A stretch of DNA of 64,000 nucleotides from Escherichia coli (GTDB lineage Bacteria; Pseudomonadota; Gammaproteobacteria; Enterobacterales; Enterobacteriaceae), in NCBI RefSeq assembly GCF_048403405.1, contig NZ_CP183129.1; one strand, 5' to 3'. Shown in pieces: positions 2,526 to 35,173 of this stretch (positions are counted from its first letter, which is position 1; every line of letters starts with the position of its first letter). The notes beneath the pieces are model-generated. The model did not search any database and was not told where the DNA came from. It was given only the letters and a program-made list of their open reading frames with translations. The translations under genes and the position numbers were made by a program.

Positions 2526-2839
2526 GAATTAAAACCGTGAGGAAGTTCAAATTTCATGCGCATCATGCCACCGCCAAAAACATTGTCAATGGGTGAAAAT
2601 ACGCGCATATCGCAGCGGAGGTATTATCGATTTATATTACTCATTCATAACGCTAATGCTGGAGAGACGATTAATCTCATCTGATTGTTTTTATTGATCT
2701 AACACAAATTTCATACGCTTCGTTCAGTCGAAAAATTTCATGGTCACAGCAAACTCATATTTCCCGTCTATGCTTTCAGAGCAATGCATCGCGTCTGACC
2801 GATTTCAGACGTACCACTGACTCTCGAAAGGAGAAGAGG

Positions 2840-3466
2840 ATGACCAAACCGTATGTTCGTCTTGATAAAAATGATGCTGCCGTTTTGCTTGTTGATCACC
2901 AGGCTGGTTTACTTTCCCTTGTACGGGATATCGAACCCGATAAGTTTAAAAATAACGTGCTGGCGCTGGGTGACCTGGCTAAGTATTTCAACTTACCAAC
3001 TATTCTTACCACCAGTTTTGAAACCGGTCCTAACGGCCCATTAGTTCCAGAACTGAAAGCACAATTCCCCGATGCACCTTACATTGCTCGCCCGGGCAAT
3101 ATTAACGCCTGGGATAACGAAGATTTTGTAAAAGCAGTCAAAGCGACAGGTAAAAAACAGTTAATTATTGCCGGTGTGGTAACCGAAGTTTGCGTGGCAT
3201 TCCCGGCGCTTTCAGCCATTGAAGAGGGGTTTGATGTATTTGTCGTGACTGATGCATCAGGGACCTTTAATGAAATTACCCGGCATTCGGCGTGGGATCG
3301 CATGTCGCAAGCTGGTGCGCAATTGATGACATGGTTCGGCGTGGCTTGCGAGCTGCACCGTGACTGGCGTAATGATATTGAAGGACTGGCGACGTTGTTC
3401 TCTAACCACATTCCTGATTATCGTAATTTGATGACCAGTTATGACACATTAACGAAGCAGAAATAA
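2840..3466 (+). CDS. ycaC: Isochorismatase-family hydrolase YcaC
   Basis: 208-aa ORF; matches YcaC in length and position next to dmsC. Confidence 0.9.
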   Translation: MTKPYVRLDKNDAAVLLVDHQAGLLSLVRDIEPDKFKNNVLALGDLAKYFNLPTILTTSFETGPNGPLVPELKAQFPDAPYIARPGNINAWDNEDFVKAVKATGKKQLIIAGVVTEVCVAFPALSAIEEGFDVFVVTDASGTFNEITRHSAWDRMSQAGAQLMTWFGVACELHRDWRNDIEGLATLFSNHIPDYRNLMTSYDTLTKQK

Positions 3467-3501
3467 AAGAGAACCGGGGTCGAAACCCCGGTTGTTACTG
3501 A

Positions 3502-4365
3502 TTAGCTTGCGACGGCCATCCCCACGGTCATATGCAAACCATAGAATACGCCGCGACCGATTAATTCCCCTGCCAGAAGCAGAATGAATGATACGGAAAG
3601 TAGCGGAACCGCAGGCTGATAACCTTTTAGCTGTGGTGCAATCCACAAGCACAGGGCAACAGCCAAAAGCACGATCCGCCAGGACATCAGCGCACCATAG
3701 TCCGGCACCAGCGCTGCGGCCTGCTGCACAGAGCTATGAATAGTCGCCAGCTCTGCGCCCTGCATCACTGACACCACGCCACTCACTACCAGGGCCAGTA
3801 CAGAAATGGCTGGCAGCAGACGCATCGCCCAGCCATCGACGCCAGCCAGACTCAGCAACAGGTAACCCAGTAACGGGCCGCCCATAAACATCGTCAGGAA
3901 GAAGCCCATCGGCGTCCAGATGCTGTACCAGGTCGGAACGGTATCAATGCTGTTATACACACGCACCATCATCCAGACAAAGATGACGCCAAGAACCATC
4001 GTCACTATCAGCCACAGCGTACGCAATGCCGGTGACAGCTTTTTCAGCATTGCCAGCAACCAGCCGATGCCACCAACAGCAAAAAAGATCGAACCGCTGG
4101 CGATTTCGTTACTGAGTGCTGAAGCCCCTACCCGGTTGAGCGAGTTAAAGGCGCGCATCGGTGAACCAAGATGAAGCATAGAGGCGATAAAGCCAATGCC
4201 CATCAGCACCCATAAACCAAACATGCAGGCAATAACACGCTGCTGGGCTTCTGCTCGCAGGTCGCCTTTGAGCAGCGCCAAAGCCAGAACGATAAAACCA
4301 CCCGCTACACATTGCCCGAAGACCGTGAAGATCATCAGCGGCCATTCATGCCATCCACTTCCCAT
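3502..4365 (-). CDS. dmsC: DMSO reductase membrane anchor subunit DmsC
   Basis: Track ORF 3502..4428; start moved to the internal ATG (MGSGWHEWPLMIF...) giving 287 aa as in K-12; start overlaps the dmsB stop, consistent with translational coupling. Confidence 0.9.
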   Translation of the reverse strand: MGSGWHEWPLMIFTVFGQCVAGGFIVLALALLKGDLRAEAQQRVIACMFGLWVLMGIGFIASMLHLGSPMRAFNSLNRVGASALSNEIASGSIFFAVGGIGWLLAMLKKLSPALRTLWLIVTMVLGVIFVWMMVRVYNSIDTVPTWYSIWTPMGFFLTMFMGGPLLGYLLLSLAGVDGWAMRLLPAISVLALVVSGVVSVMQGAELATIHSSVQQAAALVPDYGALMSWRIVLLAVALCLWIAPQLKGYQPAVPLLSVSFILLLAGELIGRGVFYGLHMTVGMAVAS

Positions 4366-7439: not shown

Positions 7440-7609
7440 AATGGCTCACTCAAGCTTGCTCACGATTGATTCCAGTAACAAACCGTATTGTGTAATTATT
7501 TCTATAGCAGGTCGCTATATAGGCTTGTATACATCGAATAATTTGAAAATCAAAGAGATAGGTAGATTTTCACTCGAAAGTAGTATTACGTGTAAGTGAG
7601 GAGTAATTA

Positions 7610-7623
7610 TTGTTCGGTATCAA
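7610..7623 (-). promoter_or_regulatory. Candidate FNR binding site of the dmsA promoter
   Basis: Plus strand ttgttcggtatcaa, i.e. TTGATaccgAACAA on the dmsA strand, matching the TTGAT-N4-ATCAA FNR consensus with one mismatch; dmsABC is a known FNR-activated anaerobic operon. Confidence 0.55.
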
Positions 7624-7631
7624 AGGGAGAC

Positions 7632-7657
7632 AAAAAAAGCGCCCGCAGGCGCTTTTT
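7632..7657 (-). terminator. Rho-independent terminator downstream of serS
   Basis: GC hairpin GCGCCCGCAGGCGC flanked by an A-run and a T-run, so potentially bidirectional; lies just 3' of the serS stop. Confidence 0.6.
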
Positions 7658-7677
7658 AGATTCAGAAAAATTGGGTA

Positions 7678-22489: not shown

Positions 22490-22577
22490 GGTGAGGTGTC
22501 CGAGTGGCTGAAGGAGCACGCCTGGAAAGTGTGTATACGGCAACGTATCGGGGGTTCGAATCCCCCCCTCACCGCCA
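22490..22577 (+). tRNA. serW: tRNA-Ser (anticodon GGA)
   Basis: 88-nt sequence GGTGAGGTGTCCGAGTGGCTGAAGG...GGTTCGAATCCCCCCCTCACCGCCA with D-loop, long variable arm, T-loop GGTTCGAAT and an anticodon loop containing GGA. Confidence 0.93.
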
Positions 22578-23160
22578 TATTTAAAGAAAAGCTCGTACGA
22601 AAGTGCGAGCTTTTTTTTTCGCATATTGCACTCCAGGGGGGATGAGAAGCCCCGACCGGGGTTCGACAACTGGCGCAGCCAGTTGGACAGACCACGAACA
22701 CAGTGAGTGGGCTGCCCGCAGGGCGAGCGAAGCGAGTCAATCCCCCCCTCACCGCCATATTCAAAGAAGAGCTCGTACGAAAGTGCGAGCTTTTTTTTCG
22801 CATATTGCACTCCAGGGGGGATGAGAAGCCCCGACCGGGGTTCGACAACTGGCGCAGCCAGTTGGACAGACCACGAACACAGTGAGTGGGCTGCCCGCAG
22901 GGCGAGCGAAGCGAGTCTATCCCCCCCTCACCGCCATATTTAAAGAAAAGCTCGTACGAAAGTGCGAGCTTTTTTTTCGCATATTGCACTCCAGGGGGGA
23001 TGAGAAGCCCCGACCGGGGTTCGACAACTGGCGCAGCCAGTTGGACAGACCACGAACGCAGTGAGTGGGCTGCCCGCAGGGCGAGCGAAGCGAGTCTATC
23101 CCCCCCTCACCGCCATATTCAAAGAAGAGCTCGTACGAAAGTACGAGTTTTTTTTCGCAT
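22561..23160 (+). repeat. Tandem array of about 179-bp units, each ending in a copy of the serW 3' end
   Basis: The 17-mer tccccccctcaccgcca recurs at 22561, 22741, 22920 and 23099 (period 179-180); units are near-identical and alternate between two variants (tatttaaagaaaag / tattcaaagaagag); each carries the terminator hairpin. Confidence 0.85.
22587..22619 (+). terminator. Rho-independent terminator after serW
   Basis: Hairpin GCTCGTAC-gaaa-GTGCGAGC followed by nine T; the same hairpin recurs in every downstream repeat unit. Confidence 0.7.
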
Positions 23161-23458
23161 TTTATCTGCCTGTACGGCAGTAAACGGTATAAAAATCGGG
23201 TTTTTCTTTCGGCTGGCTTTCTAAGCTGCCTGTACGGCAGTGAACTCAAATACTACACGTCTAGCCCGTTGTTAATAAAGCAAAACCATCTCATTTTCCT
23301 GCTACCACCCTTTTTTATCCTTACCTTCCCGCAGCACTAATTATCAACAACTTACCATCATCATCAAAAAAAGGGTCTGAACCTCCTCCACCCCATAAAC
23401 AAAAAGTCCGTAACCTCTTTCGAGATTACGGACTTCACCAACCTACCTAACAATTAGA

Positions 23459-32526: not shown

Positions 32527-32951
32527 ATCCCCTCCAGAAATATGTGACTTATCCTTTACGCTGGCAGTATAACGGGAAAGGCCATGCTAATACGTGATGA
32601 CATCACATTTAAGCATGGCAAATGTCTGAAAAATGAGCGAATAATCGCGTTATACTCCCTCTTGCTGATAAGCCTGCAAAAACAACAAAATCAAATAATT
32701 AGCATGATAAATTATTTTTTATTACGCCTAAAGGATTAAATCTTTCGCTTGCACTACACTGTCAATCAGACAAATGACTATATGGGGCAACCCGCTGTTG
32801 CCCTAAATCAAATTTACTGGATTTATTTATCTGGCGAATGATTTGCCTTCGTTTTTAAAATAGCCGCGCATTATTTCCGTCGTCACTTTTTTACGACGAC
32901 CCTATAAAACGACCATATTTTTCACAGGGTCAATTTTTAATTGAGGTGGAT

Positions 32952-33990: not shown

Positions 33991-34130
33991 GAATATCTTT
34001 AAATGAAAATGAATACCCTACCGATCCTTATGCATAACATTTCCTTTTAATTGCAACTTTACTCGCCCTTCCGCTTTCAGTAGTGTGTCATCGCGCATTT
34101 CGACTTCATCTTTGCAAGGACTGGGTTTTC

Positions 34131-35030
34131 ATGTTTTCTGGGCTGTTAATCATTCTGGTTCCCCTGATTGTGGGTTACCTCATTCCTCTTCGCCAAAAAG
34201 CTGCATTAAGAGTTATTAATCAGCTATTAAGCTGGATGGTTTACCTTATTCTCTTTTTTATGGGTATCAGTCTGGCGTTTCTCGATAACCTCGCCAGTAA
34301 CCTGTTGGCGATTCTGCATTATTCTGCCGTCAGTATTACCGTTATTTTACTGTGTAATATTGCCGCCCTTATGTGGCTGGAGCGAGGCCTGCCATGGCGC
34401 AATCACCATCAGCAAGAAAAACTCCCGTCGCGTATTGCGATGGCGCTGGAGTCGCTAAAACTGTGCGGCGTAGTAGTGATTGGTTTTGCCATTGGCCTGA
34501 GTGGACTGGCTTTCTTACAACATGCGACCGAAGCCAGTGAATACACCTTAATTCTGCTACTTTTCCTCGTCGGTATTCAGTTGCGCAATAATGGCATGAC
34601 CTTAAAGCAGATTGTCCTTAATCGCCGGGGAATGATTGTCGCCGTGGTGGTGGTTGCCAGTTCATTAATTGGTGGTTTAATTAACGCCTTTATTCTTGAT
34701 CTTCCCATCAATACCGCGCTGGCAATGGCCTCTGGTTTCGGCTGGTATTCTCTTTCCGGTATTTTATTGACTGAATCTTTTGGTCCGGTAATCGGGAGCG
34801 CGGCGTTTTTTAATGATTTGGCCCGTGAGCTGATTGCTATTATGTTGATCCCCGGGCTGATTCGCCGCAGCCGCTCTACTGCACTGGGCTTATGCGGTGC
34901 CACATCAATGGATTTCACCCTGCCCGTTCTTCAACGTACTGGCGGGCTGGATATGGTCCCGGCGGCGATTGTTCACGGTTTTATTCTTAGTCTGTTAGTG
35001 CCGATCCTCATCGCCTTTTTCTCTGCATAA
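34131..35030 (+). CDS. lysO: Lysine exporter LysO (YbjE)
   Basis: Start moved to MFSGLLIILVPLIVGYL... (299 aa); polytopic membrane protein. Confidence 0.9.
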   Translation: MFSGLLIILVPLIVGYLIPLRQKAALRVINQLLSWMVYLILFFMGISLAFLDNLASNLLAILHYSAVSITVILLCNIAALMWLERGLPWRNHHQQEKLPSRIAMALESLKLCGVVVIGFAIGLSGLAFLQHATEASEYTLILLLFLVGIQLRNNGMTLKQIVLNRRGMIVAVVVVASSLIGGLINAFILDLPINTALAMASGFGWYSLSGILLTESFGPVIGSAAFFNDLARELIAIMLIPGLIRRSRSTALGLCGATSMDFTLPVLQRTGGLDMVPAAIVHGFILSLLVPILIAFFSA

Positions 35031-35063
35031 TACCTCTCTGGCGGTAGATCCCTGCCGCCAAAA

Positions 35064-35077
35064 TTGCGCTAAATCAA
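35064..35077 (+). promoter_or_regulatory. Candidate FNR site in the hcp promoter
   Basis: TTGCGctaaATCAA resembles TTGAT-N4-ATCAA; hcp is a known FNR-dependent anaerobic gene. Confidence 0.45.
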
Positions 35078-35135
35078 TCTCCCTTAAAGTTGCACAAAAA
35101 ATCCCTTTTATCCCCGCGTTAAGCGTCTTAACCTT

Positions 35136-35158
35136 AAACATGCATATTAAATATAACT
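35136..35158 (+). promoter_or_regulatory. Candidate NsrR operator in the hcp promoter
   Basis: aaacatgcatattaaatataac resembles the AT-rich ATGCAT-containing NsrR inverted-repeat consensus; hcp-hcr is a known NsrR target. Confidence 0.4.
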
Positions 35159-35173
35159 TTAAAAGGTGTGATC

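Follow-up and report, generated by a model that had tools for sequence, protein, structure and literature searches.

The 143 bp between lysO and hcp in the Escherichia coli DNA analysed here (64,000 nucleotides, hereafter the window) are the native promoter/operator of the nitric-oxide defence operon hcp–hcr, with sites for the oxygen sensor FNR and the nitric-oxide sensor NsrR, a control region already known in detail from strains K-12 and CFT073. We put at about 0.93 the probability that this promoter is activated by FNR from position −72.5, is repressed by NsrR bound over the transcription start and probably receives an additional input from NarL/NarP. The evidence includes an NsrR operator that outscores everything in shuffled sequence, the conservation of the FNR and NsrR sites and of their spacing across the Enterobacterales, and the published in vivo occupancy of both sites in K-12 and CFT073. 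The finding is an ordinary one, which opens no new question and is mainly of use as a check on annotation, and it indicates that real operators can be located by reading sequence alone.

METHODS

The position weight matrix (PWM) for NsrR was built from the 17 ChIP-supported sites in Table 4 of Mehta et al. (2015), and that for FNR from the 61 ChIP-seq-positive predicted sites in Table S6 of Myers et al. (2013); in both cases the tested sites were left out. For the cross-species comparison, 120 hcp loci (one genome per species) were retrieved with a degenerate pattern for the first hcp codons, and the 83 Enterobacterales loci from species other than E. coli were scored with thresholds of at least 15 bits for NsrR and at least 10 bits for FNR.

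RESULTS

Layout of the locus

The window covers the E. coli lysO–hcp–hcr–poxB region, and the 3.9-kb stretch around the hcp promoter is 100 % identical to several RefSeq chromosomes annotated with lysO, hcp and hcr. The lysO reading frame runs from the ATG at 34131 to 35030 and is followed by the 143-bp intergenic region (35031–35173), which has the same length as in K-12 MG1655 and differs from it at three bases. On the + strand, hcp (35174–36826) encodes the 550-residue hybrid cluster protein (MFCVQCEQT…) and is preceded, 5 nt 5′ of its ATG, by the Shine–Dalgarno sequence AAGGTG (35163–35168), with a core, AGG, that the alignment shows to be conserved; hcr (36838–37806, + strand) encodes the 322-residue NADH oxidoreductase. 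An earlier reading of the DNA from its letters alone (the sequence-only reading) had named the operon as hcp–hcr, and the reading frames, their translations and the RefSeq annotation of the identical genomes bear this out; its suggestion that the promoter motifs serve as a positional check on the annotation also holds, as the sites sit where published work puts FNR and NsrR.

An Rfam search found no family in the hcp promoter region. Elsewhere in the window, gathering-level matches were obtained for the STnc130 sRNA (7530–7664), a tRNA followed by an RtT element (22490–22757), a lone CRISPR-DR4 repeat (23218–23245) and RybB (63201–63279). The reviews PMC8139620 and PMC5434802 do not include hcp.

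The FNR site

The FNR-binding site TTGCGCTAAATCAA lies at 35064–35077 (centre 35070.5, i.e. −72.5) and agrees with TTGAT-N4-ATCAA at 8 of the 10 consensus positions. The FNR-like motif of the sequence-only reading is therefore present, but its assignment to the leader was wrong, as it lies some 72 bp upstream of the start. With a leave-one-out score of 12.8 bits (training range 11.8–21.3) the site ranks fifth in the window, and 1.47 equally scoring sites are expected per dinucleotide-shuffled 64-kb window, so that it is not clearly above random; matches to the FNR consensus with at most two mismatches number 46 in the window against 34 expected. When both motifs are weighed against background by matrix score, as the sequence-only reading had proposed, the NsrR operator described below stands out clearly, whereas the FNR site passes only marginally and by its score alone does not rise above background.

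Since the FNR site is unremarkable by sequence alone, its credibility rests on position, conservation and published ChIP-seq data. Myers et al. (2013) list the identical 14-mer for K-12 hcp, printed as the reverse complement TTGATTTAGCGCAA (Table S6), with a PatSer ln p of −11.6 against a precision–recall threshold of −10.75. In K-12, three ChIP-seq algorithms and ChIP-chip, as well as an earlier ChIP-chip study, call a peak over the site, and hcp–hcr belongs to their Category 1 (directly FNR-activated), with the FNR site at −72.5 from the known start (Myers et al., 2013). Of 5424 E. coli records, 5317 (98 %) have the same 41-mer around the site, and the 14-mer itself is unchanged in 53 of the 83 other Enterobacterales species; in a 33-species alignment its mean identity to the window is 95 %, compared with 68 % for the whole intergenic region.

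The ybjD/aqpZ intergenic region contains another FNR site, TTGCCCTAAATCAA (32798–32811). It shares 13 of 14 positions with the hcp site, scores 13.7 bits, and is ChIP-seq positive with an ln p of −12.42 (Myers et al., 2013). The flanks of the two sites are unrelated, which rules out that they are copies of a repeated element.

Conservation extends to the non-consensus half TTGCG and to the N4 spacer CTAA, and a consensus TTGAT half is found in none of the 83 Enterobacterales species, while Aeromonas carries a perfect consensus; this suggests, from sequence comparison, selection for a sub-maximal FNR affinity or for an overlapping signal. The 14-mer would then be composite, with TTGCG-CTAA also read by a second factor, or its affinity for FNR would be held sub-optimal by selection. 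Such an additional layer agrees with the identity of the whole 14-mer, including GCG and CTAA, in the 53 species, with the perfect TTGATCTGCATCAA of Aeromonas hcp promoters at the same distance from the ATG, and with the same form of the aqpZ/ybjD site; we nevertheless regard it as unlikely, given that a second factor is neither known nor indicated, that the FNR site already accounts for the FNR ChIP occupancy, that positions 4–5 vary in deeper lineages (TTGAG, TTGTT, TTGTC), and that the hcp and aqpZ flanks share nothing.

Transcription start and core promoter

Considering the published FNR position of −72.5 and the same-length, near-identical K-12 intergenic region, the start in the window's strain would lie on the + strand at 35143, within about 1 nt, giving a leader of 31 nt. 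A putative −10 element, TAACCT (TAnnnT; 35129–35134, + strand), would fit a start at 35141–35144, and in the 33-species alignment its TA (35129–35130) is conserved in at least 90 % and its final T (35134) in at least 60 %. A putative weak −35 element, TTTTAT (35106–35111, + strand), is proposed from its spacing of 17 bp 5′ of the putative −10 and from a 90 %-conserved CTTT(T) block; the intervening spacer has a mean identity of 37 % in the same alignment. A consensus scan of 34900–35300 for sigma-70 promoters and terminators found nothing, and the failure of such a scan to return a −35/−10 pair is to be expected of an activator-dependent promoter.

No sigma-70 ChIP peak was found at hcp by Myers et al. 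(2013), who cite evidence for sigma-E dependence of hcp–hcr. NsrR repression in their glucose medium, which lacked nitrite, may explain the missing peak, we infer. When a sigma-E promoter was sought by eye, only ATAACTT (35153–35159) resembled the −35 sequence GGAACTT and none was convincing; this heptamer would imply a start inside hcp.

The spacer between the putative −35 and −10 elements also holds a perfect 6-bp inverted repeat, GTTAAG-cgt-CTTAAC (35118–35132), which overlaps the putative −10, is present in Escherichia and is not conserved in other genera.

The NsrR operator

The NsrR operator AACATGCATATTAAATATAACTT occupies 35137–35159 as a 23-bp imperfect inverted repeat of 11-1-11 form, AACATGCATAT-T-AAATATAACTT, centred on 35148 (+6) and extending from about −6 to +17 relative to the start placed by the published −72.5. 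The sequence-only reading had described an ATGCAT-containing inverted repeat about 20 bp upstream of the ATG: ATGCAT does lie within the 23-bp repeat, at 35140–35145, and the distance was a fair estimate, the ATG at 35174 being 15 bp from the near end of the repeat and 26 bp from its centre. The last position given by that reading, 35158, coincides with the end of the 19-bp motif gATGyAT-N5-ATrCATc of Rodionov et al. (2005) at 35140–35158 and falls one base short of the 11-1-11 site.

Against a matrix with a training median of 18.5 bits, the operator scores 25.6 bits (leave-one-out) and ranks first in the 64-kb window; 300 shuffles of the window that preserved its dinucleotides gave 22.2 bits at best and never reached this score. 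Its two half-sites (consensus AAGATGCATTT) score 12.9 bits each, compared with a training median of 10.1. In CFT073, which carries the ATGTAT allele, NsrR occupies the site in vivo: a 12-fold ChIP-seq peak covers it, with the summit 22 bp away from the start codon. Of all 11-1-11 sites in that genome, the operator, listed in its other-strand form AAGTTATATTTAATATACATGTT, scores second best (ln p −23.87; Mehta et al., 2015). The half-site distances of 15 and 27 bp given in that study are reproduced exactly on a B2-type sequence, and its RNA-seq table lists hcp as induced 44-fold. The NsrR motif of Rodionov et al. (2005) was derived partly from the hcp promoter, and these authors remarked on the conserved upstream FNR site.

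It might be argued that the palindrome is kept for a reason other than NsrR, either for a different Rrf2 regulator such as IscR or for a role of the leader RNA in translation or stability, given that two thirds of the site (+1 to +17) would be transcribed and that it lies in very AT-rich surroundings next to the ribosome-binding site. We consider this highly improbable. The RNA from 35143 shows no fold better than those of shuffled sequences (z = 0.04), which rules out RNA structure in the hcp leader and argues that the palindrome is a signal at the level of DNA; the 25.6 bits were obtained with a matrix built without the hcp site; the dyad symmetry is preserved across genera despite changing bases; and the summit of the 12-fold NsrR ChIP-seq peak is 22 bp from the ATG.

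Conservation of both sites and their spacing

Both the proximal NsrR site (mostly 22–31 bits) and the FNR site are present in all 83 Enterobacterales species other than E. coli. The NsrR operator lies at −24 to −33 from the ATG throughout this set, and in the 33-species alignment its mean identity to the window is 86 %; the FNR and NsrR centres are 77.5 bp apart in 49 of the 83 species and 76.5–79.5 bp apart in 78. That both motifs are chance resemblances in AT-rich intergenic DNA with no regulatory role would fit the abundance of FNR matches with at most two mismatches (46 against 34), the expectation of about 1.5 equal FNR scores per 64 kb and the empty sigma-70 consensus scan. The NsrR score absent from 300 shuffles, the sites and spacing kept in 83 of 83 species and the published ChIP-seq peaks of both proteins on these sequences speak against it, and by conservation and ChIP data taken together a chance origin is effectively refuted, leaving it a negligible probability. 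The anaerobic, NO-responsive control that the sequence-only reading had named as known for hcp is supported by the published FNR and NsrR ChIP data, by the Category 1 class and by the conservation of both sites.

Other NsrR-like sequences in the window

The third-best NsrR match of the window, ACATTTCCTTTTAATTGCAACTT (34037–34059, 15.9 bits), precedes the lysO ATG by about 72 bp. Its right half, of which the reverse complement is AAGTTGCAATT, scores 13.0 bits; a literature search for NsrR control of lysO found none. A weaker 23-mer at 63127–63149, 52–74 bp upstream of RybB, scores 14.1 bits, which is about the best match of a shuffled window. A 2025 paper describes repression of rybB by NsrR without robust binding to the promoter, and the motif is probably a chance match.

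Operator alleles and strain variation

The ATGCAT picked out by the sequence-only reading is not the common form of the operator. K-12 and CFT073 carry ATGTAT, from which the window differs by a single T-to-C change at 35143; this change adds 0.9 bit toward the consensus (25.6 versus 24.7 bits) and falls on the putative +1. The exact operator 41-mer of the window is found in 208 of 5424 E. coli records, about 96 % differing, so that the window's operator is a minority allele, for which NsrR binding is predicted from sequence. The K-12 hcp promoter has the same FNR 14-mer, NarL/NarP-like site, putative −10, Shine–Dalgarno sequence, start codon and place of the NsrR operator; of its three differences from the window, one is in the left half of the NsrR operator (35143) and two are in a second NsrR-like element (site II, below), where positions 35095–35096 give CACAA in the window, CATGA in K-12 and CATTA in B2-type strains. 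The E. coli hcp–hcr promoter was reportedly studied by Filenko and co-workers in 2005 and 2007 and by Chismon and co-workers in 2010.

In E. coli O169:H41 strain 2014EL-1345-2, an IS421 element (IS4-like; positions 2624–3961 of the retrieved locus L003) has interrupted the hcp promoter and duplicated an 11-bp target, CCTTTTATCCC, which corresponds to 35104–35114 of the window. About 1.3 kb now separates the FNR site and site II from the −10, the NsrR operator and the start; the insertion is a natural disruption of the promoter.

The hcp promoter is used, as Phcp::lacZ, as an NsrR-dependent reporter of cytoplasmic NO. Given the wide use of this fusion, the ATGCAT allele, the variable site II and the IS421 insertion matter when the reporter is transferred between strains.

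A second NsrR-like element

Site II, AAGTTGCACAA-A-AAATCCCTTTT (35087–35109), is an NsrR-like 23-mer centred at about −45, 27.5 bp downstream of the FNR centre, and overlaps both an A-tract (35096–35101) and the likely −35 region. Its score of 17.5 bits is the second best in the window, with 0.08 such sites expected per shuffled window. At the same +27.5 offset, scores of 17–25 bits are found in Yersinia, Pectobacterium, Brenneria, Kluyvera, Buttiauxella and Mangrovibacter and low scores in Salmonella, Enterobacter and Klebsiella, the local background maximum being 6.8. The B2-type left half, AAGTTGCATTA, is a candidate NsrR 11-mer for hcp according to Mehta et al. (2015); with the 11-mer matrix, the half-site of the window's allele taken alone is at chance level (40 observed against 33 expected).

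Site II may be a second NsrR operator, an UP-like element for the alpha-CTD together with the −35, or both. That 35087–35109 would serve only for alpha-CTD docking, as an UP-like A-tract plus −35 element, we judge to stand at about even odds. The best-conserved part, AAAA..CCTTTT (80 % identity), coincides with the place expected of the −35 and the proximal UP subsite if transcription starts at 35143, Salmonella, Enterobacter and Klebsiella show poor conservation of the NsrR-like left half, and the half-site of the window's allele does not exceed chance; on the other side stand the 17.5 bits that the 23-mer scores here and the 20–25 bits that it reaches at the identical offset in several distant genera, against a local background maximum of 6.8, and the inclusion of the left half by Mehta et al. 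(2015) among candidate NsrR 11-mers under the hcp ChIP peak.

More tentatively, site II could be a second functional NsrR operator over the −35 and alpha-CTD region, conserved from Yersinia and Pectobacterium to E. coli, with natural alleles retuning the sensitivity to NO and oxygen between lineages; we hold this joint reading to be possible, though doubtful. NsrR would in that case both occlude the start and block FNR-dependent recruitment, and the retuning alleles would be ATGCAT at +1 (about 4 % of E. coli), the variable positions 9–10 of site II, and the FNR half-site, held away from the consensus by selection. This reading may in part be contained already in the 2010 work of Chismon and co-workers.

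A NarL/NarP-like site and an adjoining hairpin

The intergenic region opens, directly behind the lysO stop, with a NarL/NarP-like pair of heptamers in 7-2-7 arrangement, TACCTCT-ct-GGCGGTA (35031–35046). Its centre, 35038.5, would be at −104.5 for a start at 35143 and lies 32 bp 5′ of the centre of the FNR site. The positions of −104.5 for NarL/NarP and +6 for NsrR, which we take to be those published by Filenko and by Chismon, agree arithmetically with the sequence. The left heptamer TACCTCT fits TACYYMT, and most Enterobacteriaceae retain it in the form TACYYMY; the right heptamer, read by eye, has TACCGCC as its reverse complement and fits TACYYMT at 5 of 7 positions. Induction of hcp is NarL/NarP-dependent, and candidate NarP sites have been proposed (Rodionov et al., 2005).

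An overlapping stretch encodes a hairpin with a 9-bp stem, UGGCGGUAG-AUCC-CUGCCGCCA (35039–35060), following the lysO stop (−16.5 kcal/mol, z = −4.2). Over 45 Enterobacteriaceae sequences 96 % of its positions pair, one pair alternates between U.G, U-A and C-G, and double changes are few. The G.U wobbles point to an RNA element of the + strand, and the lack of a U-tract indicates that it is not a canonical terminator. Because the right heptamer lies inside this conserved hairpin, its conservation is ambiguous.

DISCUSSION

Of the possible mechanisms, the textbook one is best supported by the sites described above. Under anaerobiosis, [4Fe-4S]-FNR would bind the imperfect TTGCGCTAAATCAA at −72.5 and, from an upstream position of class I type, would activate a weak sigma-70 promoter (putative TTTTAT/TAACCT, start at about 35143) by recruitment of RNA polymerase. 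In the absence of NO, holo-NsrR on the 23-bp palindrome over the start (−6 to +17) would block initiation, presumably by occlusion; NO would damage the NsrR cluster, NsrR would leave the DNA, and FNR-dependent transcription would follow. A further input, from nitrate/nitrite, probably comes in through the NarL/NarP-like 7-2-7 site at −104.5.

In comparison with known systems, the hcp operator shares its 11-1-11 architecture and its regulator with those of ytfE and hmp, all three genes belonging to the core NsrR regulon. The ytfE operator is a perfect palindrome, AAGATGCATTT-A-AAATGCATCTT, whereas the right half at hcp is degenerate (AAATATAACTT), and at hcp FNR is needed. Outside the Enterobacterales, Aeromonas hcp promoters carry an FNR-type site, the perfect consensus TTGATCTGCATCAA, about as far from the ATG as in the window (−108.5; loci L010, L017 and L032 among others). 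They lack a strong proximal NsrR site (most species score 4–7 bits and none above 13), implying another kind of NO input there; in the Vibrionales, hcp uses NorR2 with sigma-54 (Rodionov et al., 2005). Other FNR-activated promoters likewise place an FNR dimer site of TTGAT-N4-ATCAA type upstream of a weak sigma-70 promoter. Among the 23 FNR-activated promoters with a known start compiled by Myers et al. (2013), FNR is centred at about −41.5 (class II) in 19 and at −60.5 in one, and hcp, with FNR at −72.5, is a rare far-upstream case.
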